DNA of 64,000 bases, from IMG/VR virus record IMGVR_UViG_3300013102_000002, positions 96,001 to 160,000 of that record. One strand, given 5' to 3'. The translations under genes and the position numbers were made by a program. The notes under the pieces were generated by a model. That model did no database searches and was not told where the DNA came from. It saw nothing but the letters and a program-made list of their open reading frames with translations. Positions 1,137 through 60,166 of this stretch are shown one piece after another. Origin of the DNA: a virus. Positions within the stretch are counted from its first letter, which is position 1. Every line of letters begins with the position of its first letter.

Positions 1137-1517
1137 GTGATTTTGATGCACCAAGTGTTCTCGGGTAATTTCATTATTCATAAGGGGCCGAATGGATACA
1201 AATCGCGCGAATTATCATCCTACATGACGCAACTATCAAAAGAAATTTTGGCCTATCTTCATTTTCTATTTATAACGGAAGAATCGATAAATTCTATGCT
1301 TGAGGACTATGAACTTAATCGAATTATGGATTCAGTAGTGAGTAAGAAGATTCCCAGAGAATTATTTGAAAACAGTCTCATGTCTGAAATGGATGGGTTC
1401 CCAGAATTTTATTCAGAAGAATTAATGAATAATTCATCAAACCCAAATGGGGAAATTTTAACAGTAGATATTATGAAAAAGATAGTAATAAGCTTGATTG
1501 AGAAGAAGGCCACATGA
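1137..1517 (+). CDS. Hypothetical protein (moron-like, own transcription unit)
   Basis: 126-aa ORF with AGGAG RBS, flanked by hairpins. Confidence 0.65.
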   Translation: MILMHQVFSGNFIIHKGPNGYKSRELSSYMTQLSKEILAYLHFLFITEESINSMLEDYELNRIMDSVVSKKIPRELFENSLMSEMDGFPEFYSEELMNNSSNPNGEILTVDIMKKIVISLIEKKAT

Positions 1518-1821
1518 AATACGAATTTTATCTAAAATTGCGATGAAAAAACCCTTGATTTATAAGGGTTTTTTGTTTTGTCTTTTTATGAAAATTTTGA
1601 ATTTTGGAATTTTTTCTGTTTAAGAGTGAAAATATAAGGTTAATACAAAATAAGAGAGACATTAGTCACGTATATACATATTCCCAGCAGTAATGCAGTA
1701 CTTTTCAATTTTCAGAGAATGTCAACACCAAAACACACTATTATCCTAATTTATGTAAGGAAATTTTGTGCAACAACATTTGTATTGACAAAAACAAAAA
1801 CATTTGAATTTATTGACGTTT

Positions 1822-1835
1822 AGAACAAATGTTCG
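1822..1835. promoter_or_regulatory. LexA/DinR SOS box upstream of mazF-like gene
   Basis: AGAACAAATGTTCG fits the Firmicute GAAC-N4-GTTC box; immediately after a TTGACG -35-like hexamer (1813-1818). Confidence 0.75.
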
Positions 1836-1944
1836 CTTGTGAAAATAACTATCACTAGGTATAATAAATATATAAATAGTTAATAATAAAAGTACATAGT
1901 GATAGAAAAAATAGAGTGAAGCAAGAACAATAATAATCGGGAGT

Positions 1945-2349
1945 GTGGTACATATGAGCATGGTCATGGAACGAGTGGAAATGAATAAAAATACTAAAAT
2001 CGATGTAAGGAAATATGAAGTGTGGATGGCTGATTTAAACTCAGACGGTTCTGTACAAGGAGGAAGAAGACCAGTTGTTATTGTATCCAACAATCTTCAC
2101 AATAAATTTTCTCCGACTGCCATTATTGTACCGACAACAGGAAGCAAAACAAAACGTCCGCTTCCTACTCATGTCGATCTAATTGCTTCTGAGACAGGAT
2201 TTATTAAAAACAGTGTTATGCTGTGTGAGCAAATCACTTCTATTGACAAAGAACGACTGAAGTGGAAAATAACCGACCTCCCTCTAAATTATCATGGGAT
2301 AATTAGTAAAGCCGTAGGAGTAGCGACTTCCGATGTACAAGTTTACTAA
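1945..2349 (+). CDS. mazF: PemK/MazF-family endoribonuclease toxin (start uncertain)
   Basis: GSVQGGRRPVVIVSN, PTT, LPTHV, SVMLCEQITSIDKERL motifs. Confidence 0.9.
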   Translation: MVHMSMVMERVEMNKNTKIDVRKYEVWMADLNSDGSVQGGRRPVVIVSNNLHNKFSPTAIIVPTTGSKTKRPLPTHVDLIASETGFIKNSVMLCEQITSIDKERLKWKITDLPLNYHGIISKAVGVATSDVQVY

Positions 2350-2357
2350 ATAAATAT

Positions 2358-2390
2358 AAAAAGAAGAGGTTTTTATACCTCTTCTTTTTT
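2358..2390. terminator. Bidirectional terminator between convergent mazF and XRE gene
   Basis: AAAAAGAAGAGGT-TTTTAT-ACCTCTTCTTTTT. Confidence 0.75.
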
Positions 2391-2603: not shown

Positions 2604-2631
2604 GATGTATCCCCCTGAGAATAATTAAGTA

Positions 2632-2684
2632 TTGACTTATAAAAGGTAATCTAGTATATTAAGGGTGGAACGATAATCGTTCCA
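2632..2684 (+). promoter_or_regulatory. SigA-type promoter plus perfect palindromic operator
   Basis: TTGACT-17-TATATT (2632-2660); TGGAACGAT-A-ATCGTTCCA at 2666-2684. Confidence 0.65.
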
Positions 2685-4283: not shown

Positions 4284-4284
4284 A

Positions 4285-13850: not shown

Positions 13851-13938
13851 TAATAAAAGACAGATTTCATGAGGATTTAATGTCTATATATGGTGTATTA
13901 TAAACAAATATACACCATATATAGATGAAATATTAATA
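13851..13938 (+). repeat. Left copy of 88-bp imperfect inverted repeat (partner 40941..41028); core palindrome plus tandem NrdR-box-like sites
   Basis: 60/88 gapless identity by hand to the reverse complement of 40941..41028. Confidence 0.8.
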
Positions 13939-15468: not shown

Positions 15469-17332
15469 AAAGGGAAGTGATGATATGTTTCCTGTTGATT
15501 TAGAAATTTTCAAGGACGTTCTTGATGCGGTTGTTAGTGGAGACTATACATATAGCGAGTTGTTGGAGTTAAGAGACAAGTTGAAAGACGTAGCGGACTA
15601 TGTAGAACGGTTGTTAGATGAAGAGTAAATGATGATAAAACTGTTAATTTATGAAGAAATTAAAGGAGGATAAAAATGGATAAATATGAAGTAGGATCAA
15701 AAGTGATGTTGCTTGAAAGTAGTTATGCAGAAAATTTGGGGATCACAGGAATGACCGGATACATTATTGATGAAGATAGTGATCATTATGATTATGCAGT
15801 AGAATATTCTCTTCCAAAACTGAATAGAAAAATGAAGGACTTTTTCAATCACAAAGAACTAACTTTAGTCACTGAGGATTAATAATGAACAAACCTAAGA
15901 AAAAATTGGTACTAGGGGAGAATAAAATGGAAACGAAACTTGGCGAATGGGCTGAAAGTATTAATGCCTTTTGGTGTGGTGGGAATGGTATGGAATGTGT
16001 TGCACGAAAAGGGGCTTTAGAGGTACTTGTTTATGACTGCGACCAGTATCCATGTCCACCGAATTACGTAGTTTTGTTGGGGATGGGGCGAAGAATTAGA
16101 ACGCTGGATGATTTCAACGAAGCATTAACCAGTGGAGTACGGATGAAAGCGACTTATGAAAAAGCTGGAACTGGAGCATTTGGAGATTAATTTCTTGATA
16201 AAAACCGCATTTTATTTGAATATTTAAGGAGATGGTAGAGTGGATATTTTTCAAACTATTCAGAAGAAAGTAAATAAAATTGCCAAAGAGACATATAAAT
16301 TGGATGAAGATCCGCCAGAATTCATCGTCAGTCTATTATATGAAAAGGCAGAAAACGGCGCAAAGGATATTGATCATAAAATTATCCTAACCATTAAACA
16401 TTGTGGATTTTCATTTAGCAAAGTGATTTTTCCTCAAACATCGCAAAGATACGGTTATGAATCTTTAGAAGAAGAAATGAAATATATGTATAACAAAACG
16501 ATGTAAGAGGTGAATCATGAGCATTGATAAAGATGGTTTTGGTAACGAAGTATGTTCTAAGTGTGGAGAAGAGATATATAACTCAGAGACATTGAGTAGG
16601 TGTTTGAGATGTGGGAAATCGACTCCCAGAGAAATGAGCGGTAAGGAATATTATAAGAATAAATATATGGATGGTGAAAATAATGAAAATTGAAGTGCCG
16701 CTATATAAGGAATCAGAAAAGTATATCAAAGAAACTTTTTCACGATACACCGAGAGTAGGGAGTTGCCATTTTCATTGACACTTGACAATTGCATTATCC
16801 ATATGTATCCGCACAGTGATACATACGATGATAATGGCGAATTGAATGGTTATGTTGATGCCTTGTTTTTTAGAGCACATATATACGATGTGAAAAATGG
16901 TGTAGTTTATAAATCTGAAATTCACGATGCAATTTTTACTGAAGCAAACTGTCAAATTAAATATTTTAAAGACATGAGTACAATGGTTCATTTTGAGAGA
17001 CCAATTAATATAATTATGGGCAGAGCAATTCACGTAATGAGTGTTTGATAATGGTTAATAAAATAAGGAATTGATTAGGAAAGGAGGGCTGCTTAATGGA
17101 ACTGAATGGAATATATGTAGTTTTATTTAAACATCCAGATGATAATACAAGTTCTTGTCATCATTACAGGTTTGAAGGCAGGTGTGAGAACTTTGTTACA
17201 ATAGGTACTTGTGCTTTTTCAAATGACAAAAAAGAAATGCTATTAGTTAACTATAGAGATATAGTTCAGATGAGATTAAAATAACGCCTTACCAAATGGA
17301 TCTTTTAAATAGAAAGGATGAAATAAATACAC

Positions 17333-17614: not shown

Positions 17615-19042
17615 AAGAACTTATGGCTTACGTAAACATGATTAAAGATGTTCTGGATCGTGAATATGGGAAAGAAGTTATCTTCTATAGTGAAGGAGAG
17701 TGGTATTCAAGAGACCACTCTAGAAATATTACTGTTGAAGAACTAAGAGAATACCTGCTACAGCAAACATATAAAGGTGAGGATGCTTATTGAGTCTTAA
17801 TGAATTCATCATTTCACGGAGAAAGGGAGAGGTAACATGAACGAATTTGAAGAATTAAAAGAGTATGAAGAGGATTATTTAAAAAGTAATTGGTCTCGTA
17901 TGGACTTATTTTTAGCAGAAAAAATTAAAATGCAAAGTAGTGAGTTGGAGAACTTGAGGAAGTTTTATAGTTATTTTCGTGAATTGTATGGCGAAGGTCT
18001 GGAGGTAGCAAATTGGCACAAAAACGGAGATCTGGAACCATTTGATAACCTCTTTGATTCCGCCGAAGAGTGATAAAATAAAACTTTTATGAGGAGATGA
18101 GAAAAATATGAATATTAAACAAGTAGAAAAAATTAATGATTATTCAGCATGTACCGGAGACTTGCTTCTAACTAAAGATTCTAATGGGACAGAGCAATAT
18201 TTATTATTTTGCGAATCTGATGCAAGTATAGTCTTTGACGAAGAAAGATTCAGCAAATTTTATTTTGTAAATATTAAATCAGGGTATATGTTTGAACAAG
18301 AATTGCATAGCGACGATGAAATTAAAGTGGGAACTAAGATTAATGGGTGTGGAGCAATTATTAAGATCGTACCCAGTGATGATATCGAAGTGTTATTGCA
18401 CGAGTCTAAATATAATTAAATTTTGATTAATAGTTGAGAGGAGAAGGAGTTATTGAAATTAATCAACTATCTTTTAGAAACTGACAAAGAAATTGAAACA
18501 TATGAAATGGCTGCTAGTTTTCATGAGATGGAAGTTGAAGATTACATTAAAACTGGATATTGCCCTTCGGCATTTACTGTTTTTATAAATACAGTCTACA
18601 GTAAACCACTTGTTGCCGATAAAAAGCACAAAGATTCGTGTAAATATTCCAATCTAGAGGATCAAGATAAATGTAATGAATGTTGGAGCAGAAATATTCT
18701 TTTTGTTACTAAGTAAAAATTAGAAAACATACATATGAAAGTGGGAAATAATAATGGCAAACCTGTTACCAGAAGAAAAAGAAACAGTATGCACTACGGA
18801 TGAAGAGAGCAAGGTTTGGAAAATCTATTCCATGTCAAAACCGAAGATTACGAAAATGCTTAAAGCTGGGTTTGTTCCAGTAAAAGTTGACGAAGAGGGC
18901 GGTCACTTCTTTGAAGTAGAGGATAATCAAGTTTCATTCAGAGCAAAAAGTACACGAGTTGTGAGCCAAGAACAGAAAGATGCTGCTTCAGAACGGTTTA
19001 AACAAATGTGGAAAGATAAACTCAATCAAGAGGAGGTTTAAT

Positions 19043-19411: not shown

Positions 19412-21776
19412 AATAAAGGAGAGATTAGATGAAGAAAATAAAAGTTATCTGTAACAAATGCGGAAAATCAATCAAACGCTCTTATGATGAAGACTTTAAA
19501 ACAATCAATCTGGATTTTGGGTATGAGAGTAGTTTTGACGGAGAGACTTGGAGTTTCGATCTGTGCGATGATTGCTTAGAGGAGATGATTAAAACATTTA
19601 AATATCCTCCGTCTGGATTTAAAATTGATAATCATTTATTACTAGATGATGACATGCATCAGAGAGTGTTTGAAGACTGGAAGATAACTGGCGAATGGGA
19701 AGATTTAAAATATCATACATATGAACAGTTAGTAGATCTAAACGGTTATATGAGCGCAGGATACTTAAACACATATATCGAAAAGTATCACAAATTAATG
19801 CCCATGCTAGAAAATAATGATATTTAGTTTTGATCAAAGGAGAACTTATATGGGGAATGATCCAACCGTACTAGGAGCTGTCGATATAGTTAAGCTTGAA
19901 CTCGAAGAATTGGTTAGCAAGGGCGAAATAGCAAAAAGTTATTTAGATGAAGTTCTTTACGCTGAAAGAGATTACAAAAAAGGATTTAAAGACATTCCTG
20001 AAATGATCGAATTGATTAATGACATTGCTCTGTTTTGCAGGGGCACCAGAGAGGATGTTGATGATGATTTGTAATAATACACACTGTTTATGGAATGCTT
20101 ATGCAATGTGCTGTCACGAGAGCAAAGAAGGTTATGCAGCAGCAACACCTAATGAGTTGGATTGTTCATCATCACTACGTAAGGACTTTCAGGAGTCAAT
20201 GTATCAAATGATGGATGAAATTGATGAAATGATGATTAAGAGAAAGTTTATTGAGTTAGTTCAAATACATAAATTTGTAAGAGATCAAAGAAAAGTTGAT
20301 AAAGTCTAAATTTCGTGAAGAAAGGATGACTATTAATAATGAAATTTAAGCGCATCGCACAGACAGATATTGAAGCCACAACCGGAGACTTACTAATTAT
20401 TGAGTCAGAGGAAAGTGCTGAGTACTTTTTATTTTCTGAAAACAATAAACAGCCAGATGAAAAAGGCGTAGACGGAGTTGTTTTTACAGAGCTTAAGACT
20501 GGTATCTCATATGTAAAAATTATTCCAAGTTCATTGCCTATTAAAAAAGGAACACTTATTGATGATATTGGAATAATAAGAGAGGTTATTACTCAAGAAA
20601 AAATTGAAATATCGTTTTAAAACAAATTCACTAAGAATGGGAGATAGTTAATGTATAGCGAACCAGATTACTACGATTATGAACGTGAACCCTCAGAAAT
20701 TGAAAATGTGTTTTCAACTATGGTTGAAGCTGAAGTGACTAAGCGTACATCAAAGTATTTTGAAAAAATGAAACAGTTAGAAGACCAACACCTGACCGAT
20801 GTTAAAAAAGTGCTTGAAATCAAAAACGAGAGAGATGAGTTGAAAAAGACTCACAAACAAAGTGAATCATTCAGTGTATTTAAATCACAGATCAATGATA
20901 AAAATATTGAGAATGTAGTATCATTCTTGAATCTTAATGAAGTTAAAATTGATTTTAACGGAATGGATAGTGAGCGAATTCCATCATGGTTTAAATTGAT
21001 TGCAAAGTATTATCCAGATCGAGACAAAATCTTCTCATTATTGGATTTGTTTGAAATAAAATATCCTGATTGGGCAAAGTCATTTAAGATGCCGTTTGAT
21101 TATGGAGAGAAAGAACTGGATCTAATTTTCTTAAAACTTGGAAGGATGTATGTGTGTAATGGTTGCATATTTGATGGAAATATGGGGTTCTTCTATACTA
21201 ATTATTCTAGATATAAAGATATTAACATTTTATTTGATAAAGAATCTTCTGTTGGAATTCCGTGGAATCTATTCTTACAGAACAAACTTCTTACGACAGA
21301 AAAGTACTTTGATAAGATCATACAGGCATTTAAAGACAAAGAGAGACATTCTGTATATTTTTATAAGATTCAAGATTATCAAGAGTTGGTTCCAGAGCAA
21401 GCAGAAAGATTGTTTGATTTTCTACCGATGAATAATCTCTACGACATTCATAAAATGTTCATTGAGTTGAATACGGACATTATTAAAAAGAAACCAGAAT
21501 TAGCGAATACATATAAAGATAAGATGAGCGACAATCAGTACTCAAGTTTTTATTATTTGAACTTTCCTGTTGAAATGCAAAAAGACTTTATCAGAAATTA
21601 CAGGGGGATGGGGAGATATGAGTCTAAATTTGATCTTATAAAAAAGATGAACATCTCCAAGGAGGATAAACTAGTGTTTCTGCAAGAGATTAATGAACAA
21701 ATGTTAAGTAATAAATAAACTTCATAAATGATAGGTTTTATTATAACAAAAATACATATAAAAGGAGAAATAATTA

Positions 21777-24086: not shown

Positions 24087-25262
24087 ACGAAAGGCACGTT
24101 TTATCAAAACTTTAAGGAGGTAGTAACATGGATTATTTAGAAAATTTAAACATGCAATCTGAAATAAGTTCATTAAAAAGAAAATTAGAAGAATCGGAAG
24201 AACCGTCTTCTTCAACTCATGGAGCGATAATCTATGGTGAGATTAGAAGAAAAATCTATTACGGAGCGCATATATATAGCAGAGAAGGATCAATCACTAA
24301 AGTTGTTGATATGTCTATTTGCGAAGGAAGCGAGTTTGTTGAGTATAAAGAAATCTTCAGGGGAGACATTAGAAATCCAAGCCTTTCTGGAACAATAAAA
24401 TTAAATATTGAGGACGAGAAAACAGCATACATAAAAGATAAAGTAAGAGATATCAAAGGAAATTTTCTATACTATACCAATTATATTATTGAGACAGTCG
24501 AAGATGAAAAAACTACTAAGTCTTTTGAAAAATTCAACAATGAAAAAGATGAATTGTGCAGAAGAGCGAATGAGCGTCTAAGAAACGGATTTGAGGACTT
24601 TATTACTGATGAGGTAGTTACTAAAGAAAATTTTTGGAAACGATTGGTGAACATAATATTTAATGGGAAAGGAAGGTAGGCATGATTCCAACGTATACAA
24701 AAATCAAAGAAATGATTGAAGATGAGCGCCGTTCAATGCAAGAGAAGTACGGACACTATTGTAATTACGCACGAACACAAGGATATGAGCCAGTTACATA
24801 TACAGCGTTTAAAGAGTCAAGAAAATATTTTGAAGGTGGAATTAAGAAGTTGACTCATATTATTCATGGAGGGATTAAGAATGAAAATTAGTGATTTTAG
24901 TGTTCCTTGCGAAATTATTCAATTTAATTTGACAAATAAATATATTGAATTAAAGACAGAATATGAATCATTATGGTGCGAGTTGAACGAACTGATGAAG
25001 AGTCAATCAAAGTTATATGACCAAATCAAGGACACGGTAAGTCCGTTAGACAGATATGGTCATCGTTATGCTTATACATATGAAGATTTCAAAAAGCGCA
25101 AAGCGTGGCGTGATGTATTAGTGCTACAGGATGTAATTAATCAAGCCGTTGAAAATGAAGCTATGGTTCAGGAGATCAATATGAAGTATATTGGAGTTGG
25201 TGAAAAAATAAAAAACATTTATAAGAAGTGCGGACTAAATCCTAAATGGGTTTAAAAGGAGA

Positions 25263-30789: not shown

Positions 30790-30867
30790 AATTGGGCTTT
30801 CATCAGAAAATAAGTTGAGTAAAACAGAGCAATTAAGAGTATTTAAGAGATACTGGGAGGTTCTATT

Positions 30868-33099: not shown

Positions 33100-33315
33100 T
33101 TGGAATTCATGGGAGGAGGTATAGAAATTGGCCGGAAAATCGATCTACTTCACGGATAAAGAGTTGAAAATGATTAGAGATGCTTTTGATCAATATAACT
33201 ACTCTTTTGAGGGTGATGATCTCACCGATGAAGAGACTGAAGAAAAATATTCTTTGGCAGAAAGTATTCGAAACAAAGTAAAACGATGACCTATTAAAAA
33301 CATTCTTTCATAAAG

Positions 33316-33993: not shown

Positions 33994-34463
33994 TCATTAG
34001 CTAGATATGATCAAGGAACCATGAGGTTATGAAATGTGAATTTTACGGGGAGTGATATATGTGGGTTTAAGACCGAAAGAAGATCAGAGAATTAAGTTTT
34101 GTCAATTTGGTACAGCAGAAATTCGCATTGGCACAGTAAAGCGTATTCTAAGACCGGAGTTTTATCGTCACTTAAAGAGAGTGCAGTATCTTGTTGAATG
34201 TGACGGTGAACAACTACATATAGAACCACATGAAATGATTGAGTATGTATCCAAATGAAATATGACTTTCACGAAGAAATGGAAGGAGAAATATAATGAT
34301 TGAAATTACAAAGGAAGAATACGACATTATTAAAAGAATTCTAATTGATGGAACAGGTGATGCTATAGTGAATATAACCGATGGATCAAGAAGAGCTGTA
34401 ATTATTATGGAAGATGCTTTTGAAGAAAATTAAACTTAACTAGAGAGGAGAGGAAGATACACA

Positions 34464-34742: not shown

Positions 34743-37576
34743 AAATGGCTGATAGATATTATTCGACATTGATTATGCATTATGTACCAGATGAAGTATT
34801 GGAAAAGTATGGTGTGAAAAGAACACATAAGCAATTTCGTATCGTATGTAAGGCAAAATCAAGAGCCGCCGCCGAGAGATATGTCAAAGAAGTATTGGAC
34901 ATTAATGGTGGAAAAGTTTTTGATCCTAACTATACTTCTGAAACAGGTAACAAAGAAGCGATTGACGCTGCCGACAAATTCACAGGAGCAATATCACTAG
35001 GTAATATGGGATCGGTTTATCATGACATGAAAGAAATACACAGAGAGATCGAAGAATTCAGAAACATGAAGAATTGACAACTAGAAAACCCGCATAGAAT
35101 AAGGGTTTTTTGATACATAAATCATGATAAAAGTGGCATTTCATGAGAAGGGGAGAAATGAGCGTATGACAACAATTTATGTCGTTACATATTGTGCTCC
35201 TTGGGCAGAGTATAATACCCAAAGGTCAAATACGAAGGCGTTTTATGATAAAGAAGAAGCTCAAGAATATATTAACCAAGAACTAAATAAAAAACATGAA
35301 AGTGGTCATGATGAATATTTTAAAGGTATGAATGGTGATTATGAAATTGATGAAATTGAACTGATTTAATTGATTTAGATAATATTGGAAAGAAGGGATA
35401 TTAATGAGCGTAATTACTACATACGATGAAAAAAGAGACAGACTCAGAGACGAACTTACGGATTGTCTAAAATTGGCTAAAGAGTTACTCGATGAGGACA
35501 TTTGGGGATACGATGAGATGAAAGATGATTATGCTATGAATGTTTATACGGCAGTAAAAAAGGCTAGAGATGCTGTGTAAAACACCGAATACATAAATGG
35601 GGTGATAAAATGAATGAGGTAGAACTAACAGAATTTATAAAGAATAACCTTTCAATTGAGATTGAAGAGGACTACATATCCTATAGCGGGTCTGGCATCA
35701 GAGTGAATTTGGTCTTGAATGGTGAAAGGATTTCCACAGACTATATTGTTACCAACCAAGATTAGAATAATTACAAATATTTGATAAAGAAGAGGAGAGA
35801 TGTTTATGTTTATGATGTTTATCTATGTTAATGGTACAGCACATAATAGTATGGGTATTCGCGGAGAATTGGATGAATTATACTTAATTGCAGAACAAGA
35901 AACAAAAAAGTTGTTTAAGACTAATCCACATGCCGAGATTTCAACAAAGATTACAAAATATATTTAAGATAAATCATACATTTCAACATGAAAAAGGAGA
36001 TTGATAAAAATGGATATCAAAAACACTTTTAAGGTTGCTCAAGAAATTGCCGCACTCTCTACTAAATACGAGAATGAAGACATCGGCGATAATGAACAAG
36101 CAGAGATTCTTAACAAGAAATTTATTGATGAACTAGATATGTTGCACAGCAAACTCTTACAATTAAGTATGTACGCCACAGATAAACTACTTAATAAAAC
36201 AGCAGTCAACACTAAAACTTATGAGCAACTGTCTTCATATTCTAACTTGAGTGTTTATTACATCTATGAAAACGAAGGACTTGCTCTTGTTGAAGATACA
36301 GGGATGGGTTTACATCTTGTTCCGTTGGACATTCTAAGGTTCGAAGATTAATATCTTGATTAAATTTTCTTTTGATTAAGAAAAGAAGAAAGGAGGATTC
36401 GTATGAAATATCTGTTAATCGAAAATTTAATGGGTGGATGCGCCTGGATTCTGAAGGAGTACCTAGATGAATTAGAGCTTCATGAAGTTTACAAGTTTAT
36501 GAATTCGGGAACATTTTCATCTGGAGATATTCAAAAATATATCGTTACTGAAGAAGATTTTAATAGGGAAATTGAGTCTGGAACGTTGCAGTATTTGTGA
36601 GTTGCTTATAAAATCTTTCTTTCAACAGGAATATTTTACCGCAAGCTACTTTGTGATAAATAAAGTATTATGGTGGGGTAAAATAATCCAATTTGAACGG
36701 AGAGATTTATTATGGATGATAAGACAGCAAAGATTCAACTGACTACATATAACCAATTTGGGGAATTTAGTTTTTATGTTGATCGTAAACAGATCCAGGA
36801 TTATTTAGACAGTAAGCTATCTAAAATAGAAGTCGATCAGTTTCTTGATATGTGTACGCTTAAGGATACTAGAATGCTATTTGATTGGATTAAAGAGAGT
36901 TCAGTAAAGAAAGTAGAATAGTTAAAATTGAAATTAAAAAGGATGAGATAATAATGACAGATAGAGTAAAGGGTTTATATGTGGTTCTGGATAATGATTA
37001 TAGAGATGATGATGTTCAAGAAATTATCAATGCAATTAAAATGATTAAAGGAGTTCAAGATGTTACAAATAGTATTGTTGATGGAGACGACTGGATGAAT
37101 CGTTCGAGAATTGGTTTTGAATTTCAAAGTAAAATACTTGATGTGCTGAAAGATTTGAAATAACTTAAAGAAAACTTGATTTGATTAAAAAATAAAGGAG
37201 ATGACTAATTTGATTTCAAAGGAAACATTAGATGAATTATCTGAATTCGAAAAATTTAATGAGTGTTATTATCGACCACTTACTTATAATGGCTATGCTA
37301 CTCTGGCTTGTATGCAATGGTTCGATGAATACGATTGTGATGAAAAACGATTCTTCAGAGATGAAAATGATGACAAATATCGCTTTTCAAACAAGGAAGA
37401 GGGGATTGAGTGGCTGTTTAACAATATCAAAGCTGATAAAATAGATCCTGAATATCAAGAATACAATCATGATCATTTTTACAAATAATGAAGAAACCAA
37501 AAACCCTTATAAACACTGGACTTTTTAATCACTAAAAGCGCATGAAAGCCCGATTTTATCAAGAGAGGAGAATATA

Positions 37577-39603: not shown

Positions 39604-39889
39604 TAGATTACATGAAAGTTCTGTTTTATCAAGAAAAAAGGGAGTGGGTATTTGTGGAACATCATGATTGTGAGAGCAATATTTATTATGCTGGGACACC
39701 TGTAAATAAGTGGTTTCTTTTGGTCGAGGGCAGCTCGTGGGATACATATACTGACGGATTTGAAGTAATTAATGTTGAAATCAGTTATTGCCCTCACTGT
39801 GGAGCAAAATTGGAAACGATTAGTGAAGCTGTATAATGAAATCTCAGTTTTATAAGGAATAAAAATAATTATAATAAGGAGAATTAAAA

Positions 39890-40636: not shown

Positions 40637-40940
40637 GGATTCATGAAACCCTCATTTCATAAGGAATTTAAAAGTAAAAATACATAATTAGTCAAAGGGG
40701 ATAGATATGTTTAACAACAAGCCTAGCTGCTATGAAACAAAAGTTTTTGTTAAAAAGGGTGATTTGTTAATTGCTAATACTTCTGAATTTGATTTAACAG
40801 AAGGACGAATATATATGGTAATCAAAAATCAGGGCGAAGGTACATTTGGGGATTGTTTTTATATTGTTAACGACAAAGAAAATACACAAGATTATTCTGG
40901 AGAATATTTTTGCCATTATGAGGGTGAATTAGTCACATTC

Positions 40941-41028
40941 GACTAACATTTTGTCTATATATAGTATTTATACTTGAGAATATATCTATATATAGACATG
41001 AAAACCACATGAAAGAGGTATTTTATTA
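40941..41028 (-). repeat. Right copy of 88-bp imperfect inverted repeat (partner 13851..13938)
   Basis: Tandem CTATATATAG boxes 31 bp apart, 10-nt linker, then core palindrome 41009-41026. Confidence 0.8.
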
Positions 41029-44949: not shown

Positions 44950-45780
44950 ATCAAATATAGGTTTTATCAAAAGAAAGAGGTGAGGATAATATTTAATCAG
45001 TTTAAAGTTAAGGTACAAGATGCAATTGATGAATTAACCGCTCAGATTAATTTTATTGAGGCCGCAACTAAGTCTCCAGTTCTGCTATTTACAACGTCTG
45101 ACAAAGTACTCAAGAACGATAGAGCGTCACTATTCATTACTCTAGGTTATGATAATGGTAAGTTTCGTGGGTATATGGCTAATTTAATGAGTTCATATTT
45201 TTCAAATAACTGTCCATATAATTTAACCATCAGACCACGCTCAAAATCACAAACATCAATTTTTGCAATTTATCATGAAGATATTGAGATTGCACAGTTT
45301 AATATTTTTGAACAATGGTATGGGATCAGAGACAAACCGAGTTTAGAAGATGATATTTTAAAAGAACATCAAAGGCTTGAAAATGAAAAAAATAAAGAGA
45401 TTAGTTTAGTGAATGAGCGCATTCAAAAATGGGAGGGAATTTTAACCCATCCATATAAATACGTGTACAATTTTTACCTCAAAAATAAAAAACTTAGAGC
45501 TAAATCTATTTTTCAATTTATTGATGATTCGATACACCTCTTGTTCAATAAGAACTTGATAGACAAGATTAAAAACAGATTGAAACAAGAGAAAGATAAG
45601 TTGAAGGAAATCAACGATAGGTATGCTAGGCACTCATTTGATCCAGAAGAACTTATTGCATCAAACAAGGAAAAAGAAGCGTATATAAAATTCTGCGTGG
45701 ACTTCTTTGAACTACACCAATATTCATTACAACAAAAACAACATAAACTATATTAAAAAAGGAGGCATAAGCCTCCCATA

Positions 45781-45942: not shown

Positions 45943-46557
45943 AAAATTTTCACCTCCTAGTTGTATGACTTTACTATAAATTATAGTTTAAAAAGTAAAT
46001 AGTTATACCTGTGCTAGAACCGCGCAGTTGCTGCGTGAGTTTAATTTAAGGAGACGATTAAACTAATGAATCTTTACGAAATTCAATTTGAACATTTTTC
46101 ACAAAAAGACAGTCAAAGAGGAATTTTAGTCTATCTTGCTGCTAAGTCAGATGAACATGTTTATGAATGGTTGAAGTCTAATCCAGACCTGGGAAATAAT
46201 AATTATATTTTTACAACTTATCAAGACAATGAACGAGATGGGGAAATTTTTGATATTTATGCTGATGACTGGTCGATTATTGGAACAGAATCATTCAAGG
46301 AACGAATCATTAGATTGTCTGGAGAAATAAACGATGATGAAGTTGAACTTACTGATCTTTATTATGGTAAAACTCTTTATGGGTGGAAATTGGTCAAAGA
46401 AGATGTCAAGCCAGATGTTTTTGCAATCGTTGAGGAATGCGGCATTAATCTGATTAATGGACTGGATATCGAAATTAAAAACCCTTGATAAATAAGGGTT
46501 TTTTGCACATCATTTCATCATAAAATAAAGATTTTACACAATCTTCAGCCGGGAATA

Positions 46558-47698: not shown

Positions 47699-48645
47699 TA
47701 CATATGATTAGATGAGAGATGGATTTCGTAAAGAATGGAGACTATAAATGTCACTAAAAATTGAAAATGAAACGGTTTATGTGATTTATATAAACGGCAT
47801 TCCATATGAGGGAGATGGAAGAAAACTTGTATATACTTCTGTGGGTGCTGCAAACGGAGTAATTACAAAAGAAGCGAAACGTGAGGCTGAGCACAGATAT
47901 ACAACAACAAGAAATTATCTGACGGACATAGACTGGTACGAACTAGGTTGGAATTCAAGAGAATATTTGATTGATAGAGTTAAAGACGAATTTACTATTG
48001 TTGAATATGGACCAAAGGAGAATAAAAATGCAAATACTAATGGGCAGTAATCGTAGAGTTGACTTTTACGGAAACGCTAAAGACGGTGTGCATGTTGAAA
48101 TGGTCAACGACAAGGGTGAAACGTTTGTGTCGAGAAGATTAAGTGAAGAGCAACGATTGAATCTAATTGAGACCCTGACGCGAATGGATAATGGCAAGGC
48201 AGTTTAAAACTGTGGTTAAAATTGGAGATGATACAATGAAAACTTACACTTCTGAAGAAATCATTCAAAAACTCAAAGATCAAATATCTTCAACAAACCT
48301 TTATGACCGTGACAGCTTCAATGAAGGATATCGCGAAGCACTAAGAGACATGATTCAAGTGTTTAAATCGATATAAAATTTGTGTTTTATAAGAAAAGGA
48401 GATGTGAAAAATGGGTGAAGCTAATCGAAGAAAATTACTTAATGATTATCCAGAGATAAACGAGAAGCAAAAGCAAAAGAAGATGTCTAAAAGAGATATC
48501 ATAAACGAGATAAGCACTAGTAACCCTATGCTTACTGTAGCAGGATTGGTTGGAGGATTTGGCGGCCATATTTGAGAATTGATGATATAAGAGTTTTATA
48601 GTGAACAGTAGTCAAATTATACGAAATAAGAAGAGGAGATAAAAA

Positions 48646-49038: not shown

Positions 49039-51194
49039 TCGCAAAATAATAGATTTATCAAAATTTAGGAGGAATATAAGTGGAAAATAAATATTTGAAA
49101 ATTAACTTTTCTTGGGGAAACACAATTGAAAGTGCTGTTCATCAACTACTTGAATACAAAAAGAATGGTGTTTTAGCCTGCGGTGAATTTAATGGAGCAA
49201 CGCTGTATTCAGATACGGTTACTATGGACGGAGCATATAAAGAAATTATTGGAAAGACGAAAGCAGAATTCGATGAATCGCAGCGAAAATGGAGAGAGGA
49301 ATCAGAAAAGAGAGAAGTGGAATTCAAAAACAGTATTCCATCTCTTACTGAAGAATGGAAAGCGAAAGGCAGAAAAGTATTAGATCAAGACAAATGGGAT
49401 TATTGGGATGAAATTGTACCAATTAGGCTTGGAGATTTGTATCATGGAATGGAATTGGGATGCTGCTTGAATATTGTGAAGATTCTAAATGAAAATGGCA
49501 GTCTCGAAGACGCAAAGAAAGAAATTGAAAACCAAGGACATTCAGGAATGTCATTTGGTTTAGTAAGAACAATGGTTAAAGAGTTTTGTGCTAGGGGCGA
49601 AGAGTTTTCAAAGTATTTGGCTTATTAGAATATTTGATAAATACATACTTTTATAAAGAAATGAGGGGGATAATAATGTACATTATTATCACAATGCTTA
49701 TCGTATGGGCTTTGGCAATGCTGTTTTTGCCAAGGTGGTTGACCCACATTGAAATGACAAAAGAAGATGTAAAAGAATATGGGTGGGCAACTTATAAACA
49801 ATTTAAAGAAAACTTCAACAAATACGAATGGACTCCATTACGACTTTATCCAGACAGTTGCTCTAATGACAAAGAAGAATGTTATTTTCACGCAAGTATT
49901 ATTAAAATGGGTGGCAAAGGAATGTTGATTAGAGACCCTATCAGTTTGATGTTGGTGAAAAGATATGTAAAAAATGTGTTGTACAAGAAACCAGAAAAGC
50001 CAATTAAATCGGTTGATTTGTGGAAGGAGGCCAATAATGAGCCAAGAAGAAAGCAATTTTACTTTTAGAACAAAGCTATTTCCAATGGATGTATCGTTAC
50101 TCTTCTCAATTTTTCAGAATCCCAACACAGTATTTACAGATGATCAAATTGAGAGCTGGAATAAGCAAGCGAACCAGATTCGTGATATTCTGGACGATCT
50201 GATTGATGAAGCAAATATAATTATGGAGAGCTAATACATATGAAACCACTTTACATGAGTAGACATTTTAAATATTACCACAAGAACAGATTTCATATTG
50301 AAGGCGTATCACGCAAAACTAAAAAGCATCTTCAGAAAGCAATCAAAAAAGGCTACTTGCCAACTGTAACAGAGCAACGCTGGTTTCAATTGCCTGAATG
50401 CAAATGGTGTAATGGTGGAGGGTATTATCGAGAGCACGAATATGACACTGGTTATACTTGCCCTGATTGTGTTGGCACTGGCAAAGATGGATGGTTTGCG
50501 AAAGATGGGAAAATGTATGACAGAGAAACAAGATTAGAAGTTAAAGAATTCTAAGGAGGTTTAATTATGATTTGGTTTGTGGTTGTTGGAGGACTTTTCA
50601 ATATCATATCTGCACTTGTGATGAATACAAAAGATGTGCCAAGCGCTGTATTCTTTAAAGTGATTCCTTTCATCTTGGGGTTGGGTTGCATTCTTTACTC
50701 AGTGTCTTATTTTAACATTCTATAAAACTTATCTTTTATCAAAACAAGGAGGTGTACTATATTGGAAGAAATCGATTATGATAAGCTGCTGAATGATTGG
50801 GCAGATGGGATATTTAAACTTTTAGATGAGGCCAACAATAAAAAAGATGCCGAAGACTTTGGAACTCCTGAGTATTATCGCAACTTTGGTAGAGTTCAAG
50901 CGTTCTCAGAGTCTCTTTCTCAATTGAGTTTTCTAGAGAAAAGACGTAAGGGTAATTATATTAAAAATCAAGGAGGTGATATTAATGAGACGCATTGAAC
51001 TTTTATTGTCTGACCTGAATATCGAGTATAAGCACCCAGATGGTCAGTGGAAGAGTTTTGGTGAGGTTTGGACTGAACTTGCTGTGGCATGGGGTAAATA
51101 TGATCAGAGTGAACAACAGGAGATTATTTATGCTTTGGAAGATACTCTGAATCAAGACAATAAATAAAAATATTTGGGGGAGTGGTATTTATAA

Positions 51195-52842: not shown

Positions 52843-54664
52843 TAAATAAATATATACAAATTACAAAATACATTATATAATAAAGGAGAACAATACATAT
52901 GACATTTTACGGACTGGCAACAACTCAAAACGGAGCAAGCGTAGTAATCAGAGATTTTACAGCAACAGATCGAATTGGTGTAGAAAATGAAGCAAAAAGC
53001 TATTGCAAGAAACAAGGACTGGTATTTGATAAGGTATTGCCAGAAAAGAATACAGTTAAAGGAGGATCAACACTTACCAAATACGCGAAGCAGCGTCAGC
53101 AATCGAATAACAAACGGTAATTAGTAAATATAATAGGTCTTCTATAATGGGAGGCCTATTCCTTTAAGGGAGTGCTTGAGTTGAAAAATGAAACAGTTTA
53201 TGTAGCACCTGAGTCAATCACAAATAAGAATGTTGAATACATAAAGTTGCTAAGTGGGAAAATTGATTTGAAGAAACCAAGTTTTGCATCTAGCGATGAA
53301 ATTATCGACACACTGAAAGAATTCGATTTAGAAAAACCGCGAAAACATTGAGTTTTTTGAAGGCAATAATCTGATGAAATTGAGTTTTTATCAAGAAAGA
53401 GGGATCGATTAAATGTACATATCAAGCAAGAAAGAAAAAATTTATGTAATTGGGGTAAAAAACAAAGGCTATGTTGATCAATTTGGAGGCATTAATCAGG
53501 ATGTATTTAATGCTCAAAGCTATCAGGAAGTGGATGATGCCAGAAAACATGCGGGTTTATGCACTAATTTGGGGGATTTATATATCAGAGCACTAGTTGT
53601 TGAAGACGCTGGTATTGTAGAAATTTAATTATAAGAACCGTTTCATAAAATTATATGGGGGCGATGCTTTGATTAATATTAGGGAAGTGAAAGAGATATC
53701 TAAGAGCAATGCAAAAGAAATAGTTGAAAATCTTATTGCATTAAAGGAGATAGAATCTCAAATACTTGCTGCTGCTAAGATGGGACTTACTTACACGAAA
53801 GTTGAGATTAACAATGTGAGTAAAGATGAATATACTCAAATTGGCTCATATCTTGAAATGTGTGGATATTCTTTTACTCCATTTAATGATTATCGTTGTG
53901 CTTTTATAGGATGGAAATATGAATAACAATATAAAATACAAGATTCATCAAAAAAGGAGGATAATAATGTATTATTTGCGCAAGGAATCAGAAGAAAAAA
54001 TTATTTCCGAAATTACTAAGACTGATGGGTCAGTAATACCAGAAAGAAAATTTATGAGCGAAGAACGTGCTGTCTTCAAACACCATGATTTTTCACGTTT
54101 TTATAGAGGAACATTTAATGGACTGACGGAGAAATATCAAGGTATGAAAGTATACCAGTGCAAGACATTAAAGAAAATTCTTGAGCTTAGGGAAAGTACA
54201 TTTAATTATAGTGGTGAGTGGTTTGATGTTTATGATGAGAATGGAAAAGTGGAAATTGATGATTTGAAATAGTGGTTTTATTAGGTCACAAATTCATATG
54301 AAAGGAGACTGTTCTATGCCAAACTATTTAAATGACTCTAATAACAAAAGGGTTTTTCTCTATGTGAGAGGTGATGATTATTCAGCTCTCACTTTTGATC
54401 AAAAGTTTTATGCTCAAGAAGTATACGAAGATATGGTTAGTAAAGGCGAAACGTCTAGAACGATTGACGATGAAGATTATATGGATATTGATATCGTAGA
54501 GTTTAACAAGGTTGATGAGAGATTTTTGAAGTGGGTTAAGGATTATCTCTGTGACTACGATCAACTTAAAGGCAGCGATATTTTTGAAGTTAAGCCAGTA
54601 AAGATATAATCAAATAATGCTTTCATGATGTTTTAAAAATAAAAATAAGAGGAGTTGTTGTAAT

Positions 54665-55750: not shown

Positions 55751-57418
55751 GAAAGGAGGTAAATAATGCACTGGTCTGATACATATCCCCATGAACTATA
55801 CGCAAATGTACTATTGCTCGATGGTAAAATTGAATGCTGGAAAACTGGAAGCACAAAAGCAGAAGGATACTGGCCTTTTAAGTCATGGTGGAAGCCAAAT
55901 CGATTGAGATTGTCTAATAGCGATCCTCACGAAGAGTGGACGATGGGGGATTACACGGTTGAATCTAAAACATGGATCGTCAACAATGACCAGGAACATA
56001 ATGATGTATTCGCCATTCACTCTAAGGAATGGTATCGACAATGGGAACATGCAGCTGATTATAAATTGGGGAGGGCTTATTGATTGAATCACGCTGAATA
56101 TAAAAAGTTGGTCAAGATTGGTGAAGAAGTATGGATTTGTGACTATCGATTTAACGATATTGACAATCAACCTATTCGTCATGTTAAGCCGACAAGAGTT
56201 TTAGTGGTAAGTAATGAGGAGTTGCCAAGCAATAAGACTGTATATTATTCAGAGTTTCATTTTAAGCCATTTGGAAAGAATGGCAAGCCACTGGCACAAG
56301 TAATTGCTCCATATGATAATACGGGTTATCGATCTTATACCGGAGAGTCACTTAATATTTTCTATGATGAAAAAGAGTGCGTGAAGCACTATAAGAAGCA
56401 ATGTGAAGGAATTATTGATAAGTTTGAAGCCGCCAAAGAATCCAAGTTGAAATATTATGACAAGAAGATTGCTGAGATTCAAGCTGAAATGGAGGAATTT
56501 TAAGAATGATTGATATATTAAAGGCAAAAATTGAATCATTACAAGAAGAAATAACTGAAATCAACTCACAAATAGAAAGTGATTTTGATCCTGATGAATG
56601 GTCTGGAGGCAACTTCGACGATTGCTACAATCTAGGATTTGAACATGGAGAGAAATTTGGTCGAATGGATGCTTATAAAGAAATGCTAAAAATTCTAGAA
56701 AGTACGAATTGAAAAACGTTGATTTATAAGGGTTTTTTAGACCGAAAAACCTCATGAAAGTCAAATTTCATTAGAAAAAGGAGAGATAAGATGATCATAA
56801 ATAAAAGTATTGAAGCCGTAAAAGGTTTGGTAGAGTATTCTATTAATTTCGATGGTTATTCAGAAGAAGATGAACTGCTAGAATATGAAGAATTCAACAA
56901 CATCAAAGAGTTGATGGTGGCATTAAGCAAAGAAAAGTTGCAAGAGATAAAAGAAACTTATCATGAAGCAGACAGAATAAAAATCATTAGTATTAGCTTT
57001 AAAGGAACAACAGAAGACAAGGATACATCATTTCAAATTTTCTTGACTGACAATGAAGTTAGAGAAAATGTTGTAGCAAAAATTGATAACGATGATATCG
57101 ATAATCGACTTCTTTCTAATGTGGAAAAGATCAAAGAAATCATTGATAACACGCTTAATCAATATCCGATCAAGTATTAATAAAATGCACATTTGATGAA
57201 GAAAAGGAGGACAGAACTTGAAAGATGAAAGAGAGTTCGAAAACGAGAATAGAATGTTATTGGGCAATATAGCTAGAATAATTCTTTCAAATGATGCAGA
57301 TGAGATCGAAAATATGAGAATATGGGCGCATAAACGAATTGATGACATGGCTGATTTTAAAATTAAAGAGACTGAATAAATTGTAACATTTATTAAGAAA
57401 AAGAAAGGGTGAATAAAT

Positions 57419-58543
57419 ATTAAAACAAACATATTCGTACCACAAAAGATTAAAGTTGGTTTTCAGAATCGCAACGATACATATACAAAGAAGTTGGCAT
57501 ATGTAATCTACTATGACACAAAAGGAAAGCTACGCCAAGAAACTTCATGGGAGGGATGGCGCGACAATAAAATAGATCCAGTCGAATATGATAATGGACC
57601 AGTTTCAGGATTTGTATTAAATAAGAAGGTTGGCGATTATAAAAGCGGCTGGAACCATCGACAAGCGTACACAAGAGTTTATGATCCTAGAGGGTTTGAA
57701 TTTGAAATAACAATTGAAAATCTGCTCTATATTCTTGAGAACGCCAACTCTATCAAAGGAAAGGGTCTAGAAGGCGAATTCGTCTACTCGTGGGATGGTA
57801 AGAATCTGATTCTTTTACCTGTAGACTCTCCAGATTATCAAGAGATAAGCCAATTTAATAAAATCCTACATGAAAAGAATTTTGTAAAGGCAAAAGATCT
57901 GATTGTTGGAGCTACATACAAATCTAAAGACAATCAAGAGTGGATTTATATGGGGAGATTTGATCTGAAGGATACTGAGTCTGAGCAGATTTATACGGGG
58001 AGATCAAATGATCGTTGGAGTTCGCCACAGTATAAGTATATTTATCACAACATCTCAAAAGGGAAACACCATTTCTTTGTGAAAGAGTCAGAATATACTT
58101 ATGGAGAAAAATATAAAGCATTATCAACAATTAAGTCGCTAGGAGATAGATTTATCGAAGTGGTTTCAAGTGAATGTACAGAAGATTATGCCGAATGGTT
58201 TGATTGGGTAGAAAGACAAACAGAATATTCCCATAGAGACAAATCGAAAGATGAATGGATTAATTATTCATTAGGTGACTTTGAAGAGTATATTCAAAAC
58301 AAAGAGTTTAGAGATGATCGTTGGGGGAGTGTTGTAGATCTGTATATTGAACCAGAAAAGACAGAGCGCGTTCATTATGATATAAATAAAACCCAATTCT
58401 ATAAAGATGGGAAATACATTGCAACTAATCGTGAGTATGAAAAAATTTATATTGGTGATATCCAAACTGTTTATGACCTTTATTCCCCAATGTATAAGAA
58501 CGAGTACTTAGAAAATGGAAAACTATATCGGAGGATTGGTTAA
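57419..58543 (+). CDS. Conserved phage protein with probable ATT start
   Basis: AAGGGTG 7 nt before in-frame ATT; KTNIFVPQKIKVGFQ...LAYVIYYD..GKLR...RVYDPRGFEFEI. Confidence 0.75.
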   Translation: MKTNIFVPQKIKVGFQNRNDTYTKKLAYVIYYDTKGKLRQETSWEGWRDNKIDPVEYDNGPVSGFVLNKKVGDYKSGWNHRQAYTRVYDPRGFEFEITIENLLYILENANSIKGKGLEGEFVYSWDGKNLILLPVDSPDYQEISQFNKILHEKNFVKAKDLIVGATYKSKDNQEWIYMGRFDLKDTESEQIYTGRSNDRWSSPQYKYIYHNISKGKHHFFVKESEYTYGEKYKALSTIKSLGDRFIEVVSSECTEDYAEWFDWVERQTEYSHRDKSKDEWINYSLGDFEEYIQNKEFRDDRWGSVVDLYIEPEKTERVHYDINKTQFYKDGKYIATNREYEKIYIGDIQTVYDLYSPMYKNEYLENGKLYRRIG

Positions 58544-59157
58544 AATGGCGAACAATAATGATCACAAAATTCTGGAACTAAAGAAGCAGATCGAAGACAA
58601 GAAAAAGCAAGTTGGTAAGTTACAAAAGTTTACTCCAGTCACCAATTGTTCTATTGAAATTGATGGACTCAGACACAATATCAATGTTCTCAGTAAGGAA
58701 CAGATTTTATTGTTGATGGTAAAACTAAATTCTTATGCTATTTCTGCAAATGAACTTGGTGTACTAGAAGACTATAATATTAGTGGGTATAATGTTATTG
58801 ATTGGATTGCTGATCTTAAGTCCAAACTTAGTATTCTTGGTAAAAAAGAAGAAGAAGCTAAACTGAAGGCAATGGAATCTAAGTTGGATCAACTATTATC
58901 TGATGATAAGAAAGTTGAACTTGAACTTGATGAAATTGCTAACTTTTTAAAATGAGTAAAACAATGAGAACGGTCCAAAAGCTAGTTAATGGTGAATGGC
59001 AACCAATCAAATTCTATCAGATTAAATACGGTGATTACTTCAGAATGTTTGATAATATTACTCCTGTATCAGATAATGGTAAGTACATATTCCATGCAAC
59101 CAGCTATCCCTATTGCAATGATGATCAGGGTACTCAGACAATTGATTACGAAACATG

Positions 59158-59186
59158 TTGACAAAAGTTTAATAAATAAATATAAT
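59158..59186 (+). promoter_or_regulatory. Consensus SigA promoter with operator in spacer
   Basis: TTGACA-17-TATAAT with TTTAATAAATAAATAT at 59168-59183. Confidence 0.8.
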
Positions 59187-60166
59187 GATAAGTATAGGAG
59201 GTTAACGGAACGAATAAAACATACATAAGTTTGGGAGATGCATTATATGATTGTTTCAAAGAAGATGTTGGAACGGATAATGAATCTCAATTACATGAAG
59301 ATGTTTATGTGAAGAAAAAGCTTAGAGATCATATAGGAGCAAAAGAATACAAAAAGATGGATGCTTTAGATGAAAAGATATGGTATGAAGCCTGGAGAGA
59401 ATTTGATATGAGAACCTATTATGATCGAATGGGAAAATAGGAGGTGTAATGTGGAAACCGGAATACTGTTTAAAGTAGAACTTGCTACATATAAAGATGA
59501 TGGAGTATTGGATAGTAAATTTGATTTCAATGTATTCGTTGATGCGAGTGATTGTCTGGAGGTTTCTTCGGATGAAGAAGAGATTGATATTGGACAAATG
59601 GAAGAGATGGCTGTCAAATATGCAATAGATAAGTTCTTTGATCAAGGTAATGTGCTAAGGATGGGAGAGATAATCGAGATTGTGAGTGTTAGTTATTAAT
59701 GAATAAAAATAAACATAAAGAAGGAATGTAATGGTGAGAACCATTGAAAAACTTACGGTCAATGGATGGGTTGTTTACGAATTTAAAGAATTAGTTGAGC
59801 ATGATATTTTTCGACTGTTTGATGATGGCGTATTATTTGTTGATAAAGATGGTAACTCAGAATTCCAGACGATAAGCGATTCTTATCTAAATAAAGAAGG
59901 ATTTTGGCAAGTTGATATAACTGGCTAGAATATAATAAAAATAATATTTTATCAAGATTGCGAGGTGCAAAATGTTTAAGGAATACAAGGTTAGGTTCTA
60001 TGATTCTGGAGAACATAAACTGGGTTATCTTGTAACTATCGTGGCGTTGGATGTTGAACAGGCCAATGAGTTTGCAACGATGATTGTTTCGGGGCTGGCA
60101 TACCAACCAGATAGCGATTGGTTTCCTCATGACACGAACTATGAGTTTATTTAAAGGAGGTGAATA

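Follow-up and report, generated by a model that had tools for sequence, protein, structure and literature searches.

The window analysed here, a stretch of 64,000 nucleotides (nt) corresponding to bases 96001 to 160000 of a phage record in IMG/VR (IMGVR_UViG_3300013102_000002; G000 below), contains between its genes many copies of an 18-bp palindrome, ATRAAA-N6-TTTYAT, in which two inverted 6-bp arms enclose a 6-bp spacer of variable sequence. The same palindrome recurs in SPbeta and a dozen phages related to it, and our tentative reading, with a probability of about 0.42, is that it constitutes an intercistronic operator or roadblock-like site that serves in addition as a linker between gene modules. 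The G000 record is 174,510 bp long, has terminal repeats and a G+C content of 34%, and comes from a rhizosphere metagenome. An initial annotation, made from the letters of the window alone, had taken the copies for recombination junctions of an integron-like system of cassette exchange and had named the operator of a dimeric regulator as the alternative.

Exact matches to the strict pattern (18 bp; 6-6-6 layout) occur 17 times in the window, where 0.32 are expected from dinucleotide-preserving shuffles and the largest count in any shuffle was 3; the repetition is thus well beyond chance. The whole of G000 holds 30 exact and 44 one-mismatch palindromes, compared with ∼0.7–1 and 18, respectively, expected under a third-order Markov model, and in the non-coding spacers the enrichment over shuffles reaches 30–50-fold. 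Degenerate copies were defined by the number of mismatches in the arms. The N6 spacers of the 30 exact G000 copies are all distinct, in line with the earlier remark that the spacer sequence never repeats.

All 17 exact copies and all 25 degenerate copies (one or two arm mismatches each) listed in the initial annotation were found. The exact copy at 1514..1531 overlaps the stop codon of the open reading frame (ORF) 1137-1517 and is followed by an intrinsic terminator; that at 13853..13870 lies 6 nt past the stop of the AAA_24 gene; the first A of the copy at 18073..18090 is the final base of a TGA stop; and the upstream arm of the copy at 30786..30803 contains a stop codon. The copy at 35127..35144 is positioned between an intrinsic terminator on its 5' side and a ribosome-binding site (RBS) on its 3' side, and the order terminator, motif, RBS is also seen at 37542..37559, 53374..53391 and 56754..56771. 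The remaining exact copies are located at 16198..16215, 26154..26171, 39612..39629, 39836..39853, 40643..40660, 41009..41026, 48373..48390, 50722..50739 and 59935..59952. Copies with one mismatch are found at 15635..15652 (stop +6, start +23), 21724..21741, 24087..24104 (with an ACGAAA arm), 33294..33311, 34029..34046, 34255..34272, 36608..36625, 44950..44967 (immediately 3' of a stop codon), 46520..46537, 48582..48599, 49637..49654, 53931..53948, 54264..54281, 54609..54626 and 57180..57197, and copies with two mismatches at 17058..17075, 17800..17817, 19817..19834, 20299..20316, 27281..27298, 35969..35986, 36359..36376, 37168..37185, 47712..47729 and 57376..57393.

That the palindrome marks gene boundaries is borne out by the complete genome, in which 29 of the 30 exact copies lie at least in part outside called genes, and nearly all of the degenerate ones (∼45 in G000) fall between a stop codon and the next RBS. 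The offset from the upstream stop ranges from −4 to +10 nt, as expected from the description of copies on or just after a stop and before an RBS, and the next start codon usually follows after 14–35 nt. In G000, in Geobacillus virus E3 and in SPbeta the palindrome ends 3–12 nt 5' of the RBS, and no room is left between the two for −35 and −10 boxes. Palindromes are concentrated in the early/accessory region and are rare in the late region. Within the early region (85–174 kb) 38 of 46 spacers of 35–60 nt contain a palindrome with two mismatches or fewer, and the genes there that lack one are mostly those with spacers shorter than 18 nt. The lysogeny/replication block (1.6–13.8 kb of the window) is palindrome-free despite several long spacers: between 1514 and 13853 there are only two-mismatch matches, two of them being terminator stems, which agrees with the absence initially reported for this regulatory block. 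The order of the palindrome relative to expression signals varies and can be stop, motif, RBS; stop, motif, terminator; or terminator, motif, RBS. In G001 and G002, two complete IMG/VR genomes that carry the palindrome, some copies are placed just 5' of a TTGACA box and some have the RBS inside the N6 spacer.

To characterize the arms we used 66 curated sites, each 5' of a gene on the plus strand. Base counts of the left arm are nearly the same as those of the right arm when the latter is read as its reverse complement (r=0.99). Position 3 of the arm is A or G, independently in either arm, and the variants ATCAAA, ACGAAA and ATAAAT are found in left and right arms alike with no matching change opposite; ATCAAA paired with TTTGAT was never seen. 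Complementary arm positions numbered 303 of 396, compared with 302.8 ± 4.3 when right arms were shuffled among sites, so that the earlier impression of arm mismatches that ignore base pairing holds. Predicted RNA folding of the 17 exact copies gave 0 to −6 kcal/mol (median about −1), the stem did not form in four of them, and the hairpin has no T-run. A search of the window against Rfam returned no match. Taken together, the correspondence of the arms, the lack of compensatory pairing, the marginal hairpins and the missing Rfam match argue for two equivalent half-sites that would be read on duplex DNA by a symmetric dimer, and not for a hairpin. Of the two possibilities put forward initially, it is therefore the operator of a dimeric regulator that fits the symmetry data better.

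Comparison of orthologous copies indicates that the arms are under strong purifying selection: 0–1.6% of arm positions have changed, compared with 5–7% in the spacer and 12–23% in the flanks, the last figure being inflated by junctions at which one flank is non-homologous. The dyad extends weakly beyond the arms, as Y-n-T-n before and n-A-R-R after the palindrome in G000 and as TCTrr before and yyAGA after it in SPbeta and phi3T. The SPbeta half-site can thus be written as ∼TCTnnATAAAA, which corresponds to a layout of roughly 11-6-11 and a whole site of ∼28 bp. A slight polarity is also present in SPbeta, phi3T and E3, where the outermost base is less often conserved in the downstream arm than in the upstream one. 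In one orthologous pair (G001 139480 and G002 131188) the arms are unchanged but one spacer is the reverse complement of the other (tgtaga versus tctaca), a small inversion such as is known from hairpin loops.

In order to find out how widely the palindrome is distributed, we counted exact copies in other phage genomes, using the pattern reversed but not complemented as a control. SPbeta contains 17 exact copies and 49 with one mismatch allowed (control 9), phi3T 16 (control 2) and FADO 30 (control 1). With a control count of zero in every case, there are 24 in Geobacillus E3, 18 in Bacillus phage Nate, 14 in vB_BcoS-136, 12 in Alicyclobacillus KKP_3916, 26 in Mammaliicoccus phi6255, 30 and 32 in the IMG/VR contigs G001 and G002, 6 in the fragmentary IMG/VR contig G003, and 3, a weak enrichment, in Brevibacillus Sundance. 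The arrangement of stop, motif and RBS in E3 and SPbeta is the same as in G000, and the window encodes homologues of SPbeta YopQ and of MrpR/YopR (PF22822 and PF22823) in a gene order shared with phi3T and E3. Judged from these genomes, the palindrome is a trait of one lineage of large SPbeta-like siphoviruses that spans several host families. SPO1, SPP1 and phi105 contain no exact copy, and AR9 (4 versus a control of 1) and phage G (6 versus 7) were counted as not enriched; a general signal of Bacillus-infecting phages, or of a factor of their host, is accordingly unlikely. No close relative of G000 was found among phage records or in IMG/VR: the best identity of the AAA_24 protein is 52%, and the relatives nearest by this protein are motif-free, with none or one palindrome in each of twelve IMG/VR contigs (G004–G015). 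One of these motif-negative relatives, G004, has a different palindrome, TATGT-N3-ACATA, which occurs 29 times (loci L084–L092), about 100-fold over expectation.

Because G000 has no close relative in the collections, the prediction that gene gain and loss would break within the spacer was examined in three other pairs of motif-bearing relatives, G001/G002, SPbeta/phi3T and PJN02/FADO. Between G001 and G002, which are ∼90% identical, 4 of 72 events end no farther than 5 nt from a palindrome, and of ∼31 simple indels one has a palindrome at one end and none at both. Of the 80 breakpoints between SPbeta and phi3T, 9 are no farther than 5 nt from a palindrome, compared with 2.8% of random intergenic positions, and 48% of motif-bearing spacers contain a breakpoint versus 18% of motif-less ones (p=0.001); restricting the comparison to co-directional genes of the early region with spacers of 18–120 nt gives 50% versus 25% (p=0.1). 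A 3.2-kb block that is 99.97% identical in these two phages starts and ends at two palindromes. In PJN02 and FADO (97% identical) a palindrome is found no more than 8 nt away from ∼17 of the 62 ends of alignments. Three small-gene insertions distinguish the latter two genomes, each located between the upstream stop and a palindrome and none with a second strict palindrome at its far end; at the junction of the 183-bp insertion there is a 4-nt microhomology (ATAA) only. One 1.3-kb replacement in the same pair has a palindrome at both edges.

When motif-bearing spacers were pooled and compared with the nearest motif-less ones, breakpoints were present in 44 of 124 versus 102 of 496 (odds ratio 2.1; p=0.003 or 0.09 with one genome per pair). 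The excess over local controls is ∼2-fold in SPbeta/phi3T and PJN02/FADO, whereas G001/G002 show none, and no single pair is significant after controls. It nevertheless appears real, as far as these alignments go, that the palindrome is tied about two-fold to module boundaries in two lineages; such an association would be expected if nothing but the palindrome were conserved between adjacent genes that are unrelated. In motif-bearing spacers, 49 breakpoints were placed relative to the site, from BLAST ends that are accurate to a few bases only. The N6 spacer holds none of them; the stretch between stop and motif holds 19, the upstream arm 7, the downstream arm 3 and the stretch towards the RBS 8, and 12 are farther away. 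With 26 of 49 on the upstream side, motif and spacer mostly remain joined to the downstream gene.

Hybrid sites, in which the left flank of one copy is joined to the right flank of another, were found neither in SPbeta/phi3T nor in G001/G002. A suggestive single case is the copy at phi3T 80189, which combines the left flank of one SPbeta copy with the spacer of the next (19 nt identical; SPbeta 87598 and 88399) and a third, unrelated right flank. Among public sequencing runs, one is the probable source of G000 and two more contain small shares of it; none of the runs listed for this phage is an RNA run. Contigs from these runs consist of short mosaic pieces in which few joints are near motifs, with sides of just 21–24 nt; these were too weak and were not used. 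The homologue of the window ORF 39890-40636 in the unrelated phage vB_BtS_B83 has no palindrome on either side, so in this single case the site did not travel with its gene.

The spacer-centred, integron-like mechanism consequently fails its own test in the genome comparisons: no breakpoint is in the spacer, no indel among the ∼31 of G001/G002 is bounded by two motifs, hybrid sites are missing, and insertions come without a second copy. What stands of the proposed recombination junctions is the ∼2-fold excess of mosaic junctions in two of the three pairs, and what does not is exchange centred on the spacer. The resemblance to the core site of a tyrosine recombinase can likewise be upheld for the layout, with inverted arms around a 6-bp spacer (6-6-6, or ∼11-6-11 in SPbeta/phi3T), but not for the position of the junctions.

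A natural candidate for a binding protein would be MrpR, the master repressor of SPbeta, a homologue of which (PF22822 and PF22823) is encoded at 6473-7468 of the window. However, PF22822 and the MrpR-like protein of G000 match nothing in G001 or G002, although a positive control in B. subtilis does match, and MrpR was rejected as the binder. Its operator, SPBRE, is also a different sequence: the regions upstream of aimR, yonX, yopM and yopV read as ATACAAAWAATATGTAT-like, and chromatin affinity precipitation with sequencing (ChAP-seq) of MrpR yielded about ten peaks, at promoters (PMC10516654). G000 possesses a separate element, ATTTAATAAATAAATATAT, which adjoins TTGACA with a −10 box ∼17 nt further on, ∼80–90 nt ahead of the next start. 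Five of its 19 G000 copies are in the window (10143, 38704, 46557, 46597 and 52837) and 14 more are elsewhere in the genome. This element looks like the G000 analogue of SPBRE, the MrpR operator at early promoters. Since ATTTAATAAATAAATATAT marks the sigma-A-type early promoters of G000, the palindromes lie within long operons, between promoters. At 713-1030 (+) the window encodes a 105-amino-acid (aa) protein consisting of the MrpR N-terminal core-binding domain only (PF22822, E=3e-18), a truncated paralogue of the 6473-7468 repressor; its matches in other phages are just the N-termini of full-length MrpR, and it was discarded as a universal binder.

YonO, a single-subunit RNA polymerase of the SPbeta type, has a 929-aa homologue outside the window at G000:59589-62378 (−) and homologues in G001, G002, SPbeta and phi3T; in G002 and phi3T the gene is divided between two open frames. 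When the homologues of G000, G001 and SPbeta were combined in a profile, it found no match in E3, Nate, G004 or G005, and phrog_8308 (YonO) found none in E3, Nate, PJN02, G004 or G005. A promoter or terminator of YonO as the general answer was rejected, the enzyme being missing from the motif-bearing E3, Nate and PJN02. The initial annotation was right that the window holds no intact recombinase, and the search of the remaining genome that it proposed led to an intact-looking, YopP-like tyrosine recombinase at G000:63010-64077 (+), in which the residues R-K-H-R-H-Y (R, K, H-x-x-R, H, Y) can be read. By general PF00589 matches above the Pfam cut-off, each of the motif-bearing genomes tested has a gene of the tyrosine-recombinase fold and G004 and G005 have none, whereas protein searches did not find the YopP family proper in G001, G002, phi6255 or Sundance. 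A large serine recombinase at ∼9.1–10.6 kb of G000 (open frame of 496 aa) probably does the integration. Among the downloaded genomes a single family, a YonG-like protein of 386 aa encoded beside the large terminase, is common to all those with the motif and almost missing from the rest.

In the model that we prefer, the palindrome would be a cis-acting site on double-stranded DNA, with A-T-R-A-A-A as the half-site, read by a predicted two-fold symmetric (dimeric) protein. Its copies are situated inside long early operons, between a stop codon and the next RBS, and are linked mainly to the downstream cistron, and the bound protein may limit read-through into the accessory genes, either during lysogeny or at a defined point of the infection. 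In addition, the palindrome would mark, and may slightly favour, the points at which modules are swapped between related phages, a linker role similar to that of the PeSL elements of T4-type phages, which would follow from the lack of any other conserved sequence between adjacent genes that are not otherwise related. A regulatory role is the more likely primary function, because the site is symmetric and stands at the 5' edge of cistrons in long operons, is concentrated among accessory early genes and is absent from the lysogeny/replication block. Several points weigh against this interpretation. Neither MrpR nor YonO fits as the binder: MrpR is not in G001 and G002, SPBRE is a different sequence, and YonO is absent from E3, Nate and PJN02. 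The palindrome is the same in phages of hosts from Bacillus to Mammaliicoccus, whereas the operator of a repressor would be expected to diverge, and such constancy across genera is less easily reconciled with an immunity repressor than with a core function or a host factor that is itself conserved. Stoperators, known elements that act in this manner, are asymmetric and oriented, whereas the palindrome is symmetric. Finally, the polarity of the outer base in SPbeta, phi3T and E3 could point to a role at the RNA level, although the fact that stop codons overlap the upstream arm would be another explanation.

The constancy across several host families might instead reflect the frozen specificity of core machinery, if the site served a DNA transaction apart from expression, such as replication, initiation of recombination, packaging or structuring of the chromosome, carried out by a host factor or a core phage protein; the palindromes would then be bound to spacers only since an 18-bp AT-rich palindrome is unfit for coding. 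The A4-N6-T4 core places two A-tracts one helical turn apart, as in intrinsically bent DNA, and the YonG-like family alone tracks the palindrome among the downloaded genomes. We regard this explanation as unlikely: copies are concentrated in the early/accessory region and rare among late genes, the lysogeny/replication block has none despite its long spacers, and other Bacillus phages lack the palindrome, which speaks against a general host factor. Rather unlikely, too, is an element of the mRNA, either a short AU hairpin or a bipartite single-stranded motif 5' of the RBS, through which a protein of phage or host would process or stabilise the early cistrons or control their translation. Such an element would account for the location in transcribed intercistronic spacers 3–12 nt before the RBS in G000, E3 and SPbeta, for the linkage to the downstream cistron, for the several G001/G002 spacers that contain the RBS, which would then be in the loop, and for the outer-base polarity and the flipped spacer of one orthologous pair. 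It is at odds, however, with the absence of compensatory covariation in 66 sites, the marginal predicted stability, the tolerance of the same substitutions in both arms, as for a symmetric dimer on duplex DNA, and the lack of an Rfam family match; moreover, some copies precede a −35 box, or follow a stop codon and have a terminator on their 3' side.

The arm-6 bp-arm geometry, which at ∼11-6-11 in SPbeta/phi3T matches sites of the Xer/dif type, raises the question of whether a tyrosine recombinase of the phage, of the YopP family or an analogue, uses the copies as core-type sites. Unique 6-bp spacers would then be addresses, so that only matching sites exchange between co-infecting relatives and modules are reassorted in order, a weaker version of what the initial annotation proposed. 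All motif-bearing genomes tested, but not G004 or G005, have a gene of the required fold; yopP is a core gene expressed in lysogens (PMC10516654), and YopP has no assigned job, since SPbeta and, probably, G000 integrate via serine recombinases. The ∼2-fold breakpoint excess in SPbeta/phi3T and PJN02/FADO, the 3.2-kb block of 99.97% identity between two copies and the one replacement flanked by two copies point in the same direction. Nevertheless, not one of 49 breakpoints falls in the spacer, hybrid sites were not found in the pairs checked, G001 and G002 show no enrichment at all with 30 and 32 copies, and insertions beside the palindrome have no second copy and 4 nt of microhomology only. 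The YopP family was not found in G001, G002, phi6255 and Sundance, the co-occurrence of recombinase genes is weak evidence given how common tyrosine recombinases are in temperate phages, and the 2-fold excess is not significant in single pairs once region, orientation and spacer length are controlled. We therefore consider such core-type sites improbable, and it is still more doubtful that YopP or an analogue would use 40–80 sites, each with its own 6-bp address, for a programmed reassortment of accessory modules among co-infecting or resident relatives that leaves its own genome unscrambled.

Some other genes of this phage deserve mention. A protein with a toxin domain of the MazF/PemK type is encoded in the regulatory block (window 1945-2349, +), and a TnpB/Cas12f-like IS605 OrfB protein (22805-23983, +) is 57% identical to that of Geobacillus virus E3. 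The anaerobic ribonucleotide reductase NrdD (60418-63726, +) has an intein inserted in it, which includes a homing endonuclease domain of the LAGLIDADG type. Outside the window, a 1013-aa protein in which an N6-methyltransferase is fused to a DEAD-box helicase (G000:81123-84164) and a protein with the N-terminal domain of GmrSD (G000:88065-89084) are encoded.

The lineage-wide distribution of the palindrome, SPbeta included, the symmetry test, the separation from SPBRE and the breakpoint statistics are what the present analysis adds. We found no description of the palindrome in the searchable literature, where an older mention, for instance in the 1999 paper on the SPbeta genome, is not excluded. 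An 18-bp site kept unchanged at 12–80 places per genome in phages of Bacillus, Geobacillus, Alicyclobacillus and Mammaliicoccus would imply an unrecognised protein–DNA system that controls or structures early accessory regions. SPbeta is a model temperate phage of B. subtilis, and as both SPbeta and phi3T bear the palindrome, its role can be tested in a standard laboratory strain. A binder that acts as a silencer would add a second layer to the MrpR/arbitrium circuit of lysis and lysogeny; a binder that acts as a recombinase would explain the mosaic structure of the SPbeta-like phage group.

Among known systems, the dif and pdif sites of XerCD and the attC sites of integrons share with the palindrome the inverted arms around a 6-bp centre; pdif and attC share in addition the multiple copies flanking modules, and attC the position after a stop codon. 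They differ in that breakpoints avoid the spacer of the palindrome, cassettes lack a pair of bounding sites and, in the one case compared, a gene was not accompanied by its site in another genome. attC is a folded single strand of 57–141 bp with extrahelical bases, and to our knowledge the arms of the palindrome are unlike those of Bacillus dif. SPBRE, the operator of MrpR, comes from the same lineage and is likewise repeated, intergenic and bound by a protein of the tyrosine-recombinase fold (PMC10516654). Nonetheless, its sequence is another one (ATACAAAWAATATGTAT-like), it is found at about ten promoters, and MrpR is missing from the palindrome-bearing G001 and G002.

PeSLs are conserved intergenic regulatory cassettes at which modules of T4-type phages are shuffled (PMC2839356). 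As with the palindrome, a conserved intergenic element recurs among small accessory early genes. Indels and replacements between close relatives often end at a PeSL, as they may at the palindrome, where an excess was seen in two of the three pairs. A PeSL, however, comprises a sigma-70 promoter and a terminator hairpin, has been shown to be functional and gives rise to mini-circles by homologous exchange (PMC2839356), whereas the palindrome is an 18-bp site that is neither a promoter nor a stable hairpin, and neither circles nor two-ended cassettes were seen. Stoperators are repressor sites present in large numbers in short intergenic spaces, where they stop elongation (PMC9283540, PMC6550527). 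Those of cluster A mycobacteriophages (L5 gp71 type) are 13–14 bp long, asymmetric and oriented with transcription, they are bound by a monomeric immunity repressor that also acts on the early promoter, and their sequence varies by immunity group; the palindrome, in contrast, is symmetric, with weak polarity in one outer base, is apart from the promoter-linked element and is the same across many genera. What the two have in common are tens of copies per genome, located in short stop-to-start spacers inside operons and not spaced as promoters are, and, by analogy, the role proposed here for the palindrome, which may be the silencing of downstream genes through a block of elongation.

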